From Escherichia coli (lineage in GTDB: Bacteria > Pseudomonadota > Gammaproteobacteria > Enterobacterales > Enterobacteriaceae), in the NCBI RefSeq assembly GCF_002854065.1, contig NZ_CP024147.1: DNA of 64,000 bases; one strand, 5' to 3'. Of this stretch, positions 33,001 to 36,000 are shown piece after piece (positions within the stretch are counted from its first letter, which is position 1; the number at the start of each line of letters is the position of its first letter). The position numbers were made by a program.

Positions 33001-36000
33001 ACGGCGCGCATTATTGCTGTGCTGGAACCGCGCTCGAATACCATGAAAATGGGGATCTGCAAAGACGATCTGGCACCTTCATTAGGTCGTGCCGATGAAG
33101 TCTTCCTGCTGCAACCGGCGCATATTCCGTGGCAGGTGGCAGAAGTGGCAGAAGCCTGCGTTCAGCCTGCACACTGGAGTGGCGATGTGGATACGCTGGC
33201 AGATATGGTGGTGAAAACCGCTCAGCCTGGCGACCATATTCTGGTGATGAGCAACGGCGGTTTTGGTGGGATCCATCAGAAACTGCTGGATGGTCTGGCG
33301 AAGAAGGCGGAAGCTGCGCAGTAATTCGGCCTCAGCCTGATATAGTGTGCGTAGGCCGGATAAGGCATTCACGCCGCATCCGGCATTTGAGCATAGTGCC
33401 TGATGCGACGCTTGATGCGTCTTATCAGGCCTACAGGTGCACCGCATCCGGCAAACCATACTCACATCAACAACGAAAATTACCCTTCATTCTCCGCCAG
33501 TTCGCGCAGATACTGGAAAATCTGGCGTGCGGATTTCGGCGGCTTATTCCCTTCTTTCTCTTTCTTCGCGTTGCGGATCAGTGTACGCAGTTGCTGACGA
33601 TCGGCATCGGGCCACAGATTCAATACTTCAGCGATGGCGTCATCACCTTGATCGATCAGACGATCGCGCAGGTTTTCCAGTTTATGGAACAGCACCACCT
33701 GCTGGTTGTGACGGTTTTTCAGCTTATCCAGCGCCTGACGAATAGGCTCTACGTCGCGCTGGCGCAGCATCTTACCGATGAGCTGCAACTGGCGGCGGCG
33801 ACCTTCCATCTTAATACGCTGGGCGAGCTCAATAGCCGCGCGCAGATCCGCATCTAACGGGATCTTATCCAGCGCGTTTTTCCCCAGATCAACAATTTCC
33901 GCGCCAAGGCGTTTTAGCTCCTCGGCATCACGTTTAATTTCACTTTTACTGACCCAGATAATTTCATCGTCTTCGTCTTCGATGTCATCACCGGGAACGT
34001 CGTCGAGCCAGTCTTCGGGCTGCTTAGTCATCTCAGGCTCCTTAAAAAAAAGAGGCTAATGTTACCAGTTAAGATGCGCACTGAAAAACGGTTCTCTGTT
34101 AGACTTCAGAGAAACTCTCTACATTATGGCACTTGCAATGAAAGTAATCTCTCAAGTTGAAGCGCAGCGCAAGATTCTGGAAGAAGCAGTTTCCACTGCG
34201 CTGGAGTTGGCCTCAGGCAAATCGGACGGTGCGGAAGTTGCCGTCAGCAAGACCACCGGCATTAGCGTAAGCACGCGTTATGGTGAAGTGGAGAATGTTG
34301 AATTCAATAGCGATGGCGCGCTGGGGATCACTGTTTATCACCAGAACCGCAAAGGTAGCGCATCATCCACCGATTTAAGCCCGCAGGCCATTGCCCGTAC
34401 TGTACAGGCGGCGCTGGATATTGCCCGTTATACCTCGCCAGATCCCTGTGCCGGCCTGGCAGACAAAGAACTGCTGGCCTTTGACGCACCAGATCTCGAC
34501 TTGTTCCACCCTGCTGAAGTTTCCCCGGATGATGCCATTGAACTGGCGGCCCGCGCAGAACAGGCGGCATTGCAGGCGGACAAACGCATTACCAATACCG
34601 AAGGCGGCAGTTTTAACAGCCACTACGGTGTCAAAGTTTTTGGCAACAGCCACGGCATGTTGCAGGGTTACTGCTCTACGCGTCATTCACTCTCCAGCTG
34701 TGTAATTGCCGAAGAAAATGGCGATATGGAGCGTGATTACGCCTACACCATTGGTCGTGCGATGAGCGATCTGCAAACGCCAGAGTGGGTTGGGGCCGAC
34801 TGTGCTCGCCGTACTTTATCGCGCCTGTCACCGCGTAAACTCTCCACCATGAAAGCGCCAGTCATTTTTGCCAATGAAGTGGCAACCGGGCTTTTTGGCC
34901 ATCTGGTGGGGGCGATAGCGGGTGGCTCGGTTTACCGTAAATCTACCTTTCTGCTGGATTCGCTGGGTAAACAAATTCTGCCGGACTGGCTGACCATTGA
35001 AGAGCATCCGCATCTGCTGAAAGGGCTGGCGTCGACGCCATTCGACAGCGAAGGTGTGCGCACCGAGCGTCGCGATATTATTAAAGATGGCATCCTGACT
35101 CAGTGGCTGCTGACCAGCTACTCGGCGCGGAAACTGGGGCTGAAAAGCACCGGACATGCGGGCGGTATTCACAACTGGCGGATTGCCGGACAAGGGCTAA
35201 GCTTCGAACAAATGCTCAAAGAGATGGGCACCGGGCTGGTGGTGACGGAGCTGATGGGCCAGGGCGTGAGTGCCATTACCGGTGATTATTCCCGTGGTGC
35301 AGCGGGCTTCTGGGTAGAGAATGGCGAAATTCAGTATCCCGTTAGTGAAATCACCATCGCAGGTAATTTAAAAGATATGTGGCGCAATATTGTCACCGTC
35401 GGTAACGATATTGAAACACGCAGTAATATACAGTGTGGTTCTGTGCTGTTGCCGGAGATGAAAATCGCCGGGCAGTAAAAAACTGGCGCGACCTGCCGCG
35501 CCAAATCTTCATAATAAAAAAGGAAGTGAGCAATGCGTAAAAGCCTGTTAGCTATTCTTGCAGTCTCCTCGTTGGTATTCAGTTCGGCGTCGTTTGCCGC
35601 TGATCTTGAAGACAATATGGAAACCCTCAACGACAATTTAAAAGTGGTCGAAAAAGCCGATAACGCGGCGCAAGTCAAAGACGCGTTAACGAAGATGCGC
35701 GCCGCAGCGCTGGATGCGCAAAAAGCGACGCCGCCGAAGCTTGAAGGCAAATCACCGGACAGCCCGGAAATGAAAGACTTCCGCCACGGTTTCGATATTC
35801 TGGTCGGTCAGATTGACGACGCGCTGAAGCTGGCAAATGAAGGTAAAGTAAAAGAAGCGCAGGCTGCCGCAGAGCAACTGAAAACGACCCGCAACGCCTA
35901 TCACCAGAAGTATCGTTAATTCCTCATTTCCCTGTTGCCTGCACTCAGGTAACAGGGAACTTATCATCGCAAATGATGCACCACCTGATTGCTGCTGCCG

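Follow-up and report, generated by a model that had tools for sequence, protein, structure and literature searches.

An intact cybC gene for cytochrome b562 in an Escherichia coli sequence that is neither K-12 nor B

Cytochrome b562, the product of cybC, is a small soluble electron-transfer protein. The precursor is exported by the Sec pathway and cleaved before Ala23, and the mature protein folds into a four-helix bundle that binds a b-type heme non-covalently. The protein is located in the periplasm (PMC2490766), and its physiological role is unknown (PMC3349551). In the E. coli B strain REL606, cybC (WP_001232240.1; solved as 256B, 1APC and 1QPU) lies between pmbA and nrdG, and it was found to be highly expressed relative to MG1655, irrespective of the growth conditions (PMC3446290). 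In the K-12 strain MG1655, cybC is a pseudogene (PMC3349551), and the Keio cybC knockout serves as a neutral pseudogene control (PMC6945024).

The cybC locus analysed here lies in a 64,000-nucleotide stretch of E. coli DNA (the window), and the coordinates of its features are collected in Table 1. The gene is the known cytochrome b562 gene in its usual intact form, and there is nothing new about it. It is almost certainly a normal cybC that would make an exported, heme-binding b562 of 106 residues, carried by a strain nearest to CUWW06, while K-12 has lost 26 bp of the same locus.

The cybC gene and its product

The ORF list and the translation identified a reading frame of 128 codons on the plus strand (35533-35919), which begins with ATG and ends with TAA. 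The initial annotation had described cybC as intact, with 128 amino acids and a signal peptide. The translation agreed exactly with the protein quoted there, and the Shine-Dalgarno sequence, the 22-residue presequence and the stop codon were all present. The end of the AGGA core of the Shine-Dalgarno sequence is separated from the ATG by 8 nt. The best-matching genomes label the locus "cybC: cytochrome b562", and among the matches listed, the window gene is 100% identical at the DNA level to the annotated cybC of more than 30 complete genomes. The locus was found in 5,425 of 5,426 complete E. coli genomes.

Table 1. Features of the cybC region and other loci in the window, with the matching positions of the palindromic element in REL606 and MG1655.
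Feature	Coordinates	Strand	Basis or remark
IS1, sole copy in the window	5196-5968		between an MFS-transporter gene (3937-5214) and ytfB (5972-6646)
pmbA (tldE), co-oriented upstream neighbour	34126-35478	+	ORF list; CUWW06, REL606 and MG1655 annotations
GC-rich hairpin just past the pmbA stop	35484-35503		terminator scan; fold -14.4 kcal/mol, z = -2.0
Insert-free site, 11 nt (caaatcttcat)	35502-35512		alignments; ~139 nt in its place in B and K-12
Shine-Dalgarno sequence AAGGAAG	35520-35526	+	read from the sequence; conserved in B
26 nt missing in K-12, present here	35526-35551	+	three-way alignment; BLAST match to MG1655 resumes at 35552
cybC CDS, soluble cytochrome b562 precursor	35533-35919	+	ORF, Pfam, PDB matches, annotated orthologues
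Predicted signal peptide, codons 1-22, cleavage before Ala23	35533-35598	+	structure start at residue 23
Mature cytochrome b562, 106 aa	35599-35916	+	alignment with B and the K-12 remnant; Pfam
Hairpin with 14-bp stem between the convergent cybC and nrdG	35928-35959		fold
nrdG, convergent downstream neighbour	35964-36428	-	ORF list; annotations
Mg riboswitch, mgtA leader			Rfam; among the Rfam spans given in the text
130-nt palindromic element	REL606 12597-12726; MG1655 7347-7476		retrieved locus sequences; absent from the window

The Pfam profile Cytochrom_B562 (PF07361) matched residues 24-128 of the protein with a score of 117.2 bits (E = 5.8e-34; gathering score 30 bits), and positions 1-102 of the 102 in the profile were covered. 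In the PDB, hundreds of chains with E. coli soluble cytochrome b562 were matched, with E-values down to 1e-76, which is far beyond chance. The deposited precursor (9tmp_A) aligned to residues 1-128 (E = 1.4e-76), and the mature 106-residue chains 1apc and 256b (also 1QPU) aligned to residues 23-128 (E = 2.7e-63). Given this end-to-end match to solved chains at ~98% identity, the product is expected to adopt the four-helix-bundle fold.

The solved mature chain begins at residue 23, so residues 1-22 form the presequence that is cleaved off, with the boundary after Ala22. The presequence shows a basic n-region, a hydrophobic core and an SFA motif, it is the same as that of the biochemically characterised B protein in the alignment, and it is predicted to be cleaved in the strain from which the window derives. 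Met29 (35617-35619) and His124 (35902-35904) correspond to Met7 and His102 of the mature protein, which we take to be the axial heme ligands on the basis of the established 256B structure. Both residues are unchanged across the window, B and K-12 in the protein alignment.

The AAGGAAG sequence would direct the translation of the 128-residue precursor, and the 22-residue signal peptide would take it through the Sec pathway to the periplasm, where it would be removed before Ala23. The mature protein of 106 residues would then form a four-helix bundle with one non-covalent b-type heme, held by Met7 and His102. We infer from the sequence that cybC is expressed, and that its product is exported and loaded with heme, in this strain.

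The REL606 gene occupies the same locus and has the same lengths as that of the window, with a 128-residue precursor and a 106-residue mature protein, and its signal peptide and heme ligands are the same. The two genes differ at 10 of 387 nt. The proteins are identical at 126 of 128 residues, with the changes I39V and D72G from B to the window (I17V and D50G in mature numbering), so that 2 of the 106 mature residues differ. The window carries Val17 (35647-35649) and Gly50 (35746-35748), which is a minority allele. Mature position 50 presumably lies in the loop between helix 2 and helix 3 of 256B, and from this position Gly50 is expected to be neutral.

The K-12 lesion and the placement of the strain

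The MG1655 annotation (NC_000913.3) lists cybC (b4236) as a 368-bp pseudogene. This entry and the literature (PMC3349551) bear out the initial annotation, which had described K-12 cybC as a truncated pseudogene. When the window was aligned with both MG1655 and REL606, K-12 proved to lack the 26 nt GTGAGCAATGCGTAAAAGCCTGTTAG, equivalent to 35526-35551 in the window, and the K-12 gene is thus not a full-length, identical copy. The deletion takes 7 nt from the end of the leader and 19 nt from the start of the coding sequence (ATG, codons 1-6). The remnant continues in the original frame, but has neither a start codon nor a complete signal peptide. It also carries A122S and Q125K, neither of which is present in the window, while Val39 is common to both. 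The two loci are orthologous, with matching downstream sequence and a matching hairpin; however, K-12 has both the 26-bp deletion and a ~130-bp insert in the spacer upstream of cybC, and the window has neither.

A 70-nt query spanning the K-12 junction, of which at least 80% can be covered only in genomes that bear the deletion, had full matches in 355 of the 5,426 complete genomes. Six rows sampled evenly from the 355 matches were all K-12 laboratory derivatives (ER1709, BW25113, ATCC BAA-196, DH10B, JCL301 and MC4100). As the junction is present in only these 355 genomes, intact cybC is the usual state in E. coli, and K-12 is the exception. The contrast between the window and K-12 is real, but it tells more about K-12 than about the strain of the window. 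The cybC of the window should be annotated as intact, without carrying over the pseudogene label of the K-12 reference. The 26-bp deletion is a convenient K-12 marker.

The suggestion of a non-K-12 lineage was upheld, as the window is without the 26-bp deletion and is 98.46% identical to MG1655 over 17.9 kb. For window positions 24000-48000, CUWW06 (wastewater, Thailand) was the best match among the matches listed (100.0%), and swine and poultry isolates came next (99.7%). CUWW06 was 99.988% identical to the window over the 48 kb aligned (~46 kb unique), with 6 mismatches. Its cybC (WP_001232246.1) shows no difference from that of the window and is 100% identical over the 521-bp cybC region, the insert-free spacer included; the two sequences are told apart by the 6 SNPs in 46 kb and by different IS1 positions. 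Besides CUWW06, about 536 complete genomes were at least 99% identical to the window at cybC. The source of the window is a commensal-type E. coli near CUWW06, and is neither K-12 nor B.

Of the six mismatches between CUWW06 and the window, one each falls in the 19-20, 24-25, 26-27, 38-39, 45-46 and 50-51 kb bins. Two were located by four-way alignment: at ~38858 K-12 and B share the base of the window, and at ~45400 the window has a base of its own.

REL606 was 98.83% identical to the window over 41 kb, and the per-kb profile showed that the differences were unevenly spread. Between 22.9 and 35.0 kb, there were 4 mismatches outside a single patch of 22 mismatches in the 30-31 kb bin, at the 3' end of yjfF. 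Each 1-kb bin from cybC onward held 2-61 mismatches; outside the 22.9-35.0 kb tract, the divergence amounts to 1-6% per kb. The window is thus a sharp mosaic relative to REL606, and the B-identical tract ends at the pmbA-cybC spacer. The ~12-kb B-like tract shows mosaic ancestry, not lineage identity. A comparison of three sampled 2.9-kb segments had placed the window at an equal distance from K-12 and B; this was overturned by the full per-kb profile.

The initial annotation had guessed at a possibly B-like strain and had counted several IS1-associated features as a hint in that direction. Intact cybC is found in both the window and B, although the two genes differ at 10 of 387 nt and two amino acids, and the ~130-bp spacer insert of B is absent from the window. 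The tract from 22.9 to 35.0 kb, with its 4 mismatches to REL606 outside the 22-SNP patch, would also fit a B-lineage strain, but the 17.5 kb that follow cybC contain 283 mismatches, and the 11 kb after them another 160. The IS1 hint did not hold either: the window has a single IS1, while REL606 has none in the whole equivalent region and carries a 7-kb gene cluster at the position of that IS1. No B strain was present among the 40 best matches. A B-lineage origin is refuted at the cybC locus, and for the window as a whole it is extremely improbable. A commensal-type strain near CUWW06 accordingly remains the preferred source. As ~93% of the complete E. coli genomes are without the K-12 lesion, intact cybC is a weak lineage marker and does not place a strain in B or in another lineage.

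The pmbA-cybC spacer and cybC transcription

The distance from the pmbA stop codon to the cybC ATG is 54 nt in the window compared to 182 nt in REL606, and MG1655 has a similar extra stretch. The left flank of the spacer also differs between the window and B or K-12, and the difference in length may stem from an insertion in B and K-12 or from a deletion in the lineage of the window. The extra ~139 nt in B and K-12 holds a 130-nt palindromic repeat, which folds into one long, near-perfect hairpin (-63.3 kcal/mol) with TTACAC/GTGTAA ends. The insert-free junction of the window type was found in 1,516 of 5,426 genomes (28%) and the right end of the insert in 3,876 of 5,426 (~71%); jointly, they cover 5,392 of the 5,426 genomes. 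As a local marker, whether the ~130-bp insert is there or not tells more than intact cybC does. Full-length paralogues of the 130-nt element were detected elsewhere at 60-80% identity, with the median genome having 3 detectable places. No paralogue was found in the 64 kb of the window or in the loci retrieved from K-12, B and CUWW06.

ERIC/IRU elements are imperfect palindromes of ~127 bp that are intergenic and dispersed in several copies. The element in B and K-12 is similar to them in its size, its palindromic form and its intergenic, multi-copy dispersal, and by these features the insert resembles an ERIC/IRU-like palindromic repeat. The element was also aligned to the 44-nt core of ERIC, as given by the standard primers ERIC1R and ERIC2. 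The alignment scored 16; shuffled sequences averaged 13.6 and reached at least that score in 78 of 500 cases. As this alignment was not significant, a firm ERIC assignment of the insert was dropped. In the window and the B locus, no Rfam family matched cybC or the 130-nt element, and a literature search returned no paper connecting ERIC with cybC.

The hairpin just past the pmbA stop makes up most of the 54-nt spacer. Its A-tract is on the 5' side, so that it is terminator-like only on the minus strand. The hairpin between cybC and nrdG (35928-35959) has a folding energy of -23.3 kcal/mol on the plus strand (z = -7.2) and -19.5 kcal/mol on the minus strand (z = -4.2). It is identical in K-12 and B and is without a U-tract on either strand, and it may terminate or stabilise transcripts.

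At this polymorphic spacer, the MITE-like element might mark or promote the end-points of recombination, or it might carry or displace the cybC promoter; we consider these possibilities unlikely. If the element did carry or displace the promoter, insert-free strains would regulate cytochrome b562 unlike B-type strains.

Two further explanations of the locus were weighed, and both question whether the window would yield the exported protein. In one, cybC is intact but weakly expressed or silent in this strain, because its insert-free spacer lacks a promoter, which the ~130-bp element of B and most strains may supply or position. A consensus scan for sigma-70-like promoters found 0 sites in 35200-36100, in line with such silence; however, the scan is strict, and shuffled sequences also yielded few sites (mean of only 0.7). 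The hairpin dominates the spacer, but read-through from pmbA, or a promoter within the 3' end of pmbA, is a plausible source of cybC transcripts and is equally possible. The high expression reported for cybC is that of REL606, which carries the insert (PMC3446290), yet 28% of the complete genomes pair the insert-free junction with an intact ORF, which suggests that the gene is maintained. Taken together, a weakly expressed or silent cybC is quite unlikely. In the other explanation, the ORF arose by chance or its start is wrong, and the true product is without a signal peptide. ORF lists are indeed mechanical, but the 9tmp_A precursor matches residues 1-128 (E = 1.4e-76), the Shine-Dalgarno sequence stands at the proper spacing, and both REL606 and CUWW06 are annotated with the same cybC start, which leaves this explanation with a negligible probability. 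A normal cybC that encodes the full precursor is the reading that we retain.

IS1 and neighbouring loci

At the position of the IS1 of the window, REL606 has a ~7-kb metabolic gene cluster that encodes an FAD-dependent oxidoreductase, a CoA transferase, an enoyl-CoA hydratase, a sugar-phosphate isomerase, a 3-ketoacyl-ACP reductase and a TetR regulator. This points to an IS1-associated deletion at 5196-5968 in the lineage of the window. No complete genome matched the IS1 junction region (3000-8200) as a whole; the best match was in 3 pieces, with 99.0% identity. CUWW06 carries IS1 in cpdB and bdcA, and the window is empty at both sites (~14116-14124 and ~49810-49817). The alignments at the empty sites overlap by 9 bp, which is the length of the IS1 target duplication. 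With three IS1 site differences despite only 6 SNPs in 46 kb, the comparison indicates recent IS1 activity in the pair formed by the window and CUWW06.

The ORF at 51503-52594 (363 amino acids; locus to ~53092) is a truncated homologue of the 550-residue REL606 protein ECB_RS21915, and in CUWW06 the annotation gives this gene a frameshift and an internal stop. Divergence from B peaks in the 51-52 kb bin (61 mismatches per kb).

The Rfam matches in the window were, in the order reported, the Mg riboswitch (mgtA leader), RpsF leader, ES239, STnc450, ES036, Ysr276 and several naRNA4, the last of which we take to be derived from REP elements. The positions of the matches were 43482-43597, 2314-2398, 14476-14598, 17950-18007, 18087-18129, 61151-61345, 27113, 33354, 60146 and 60242.
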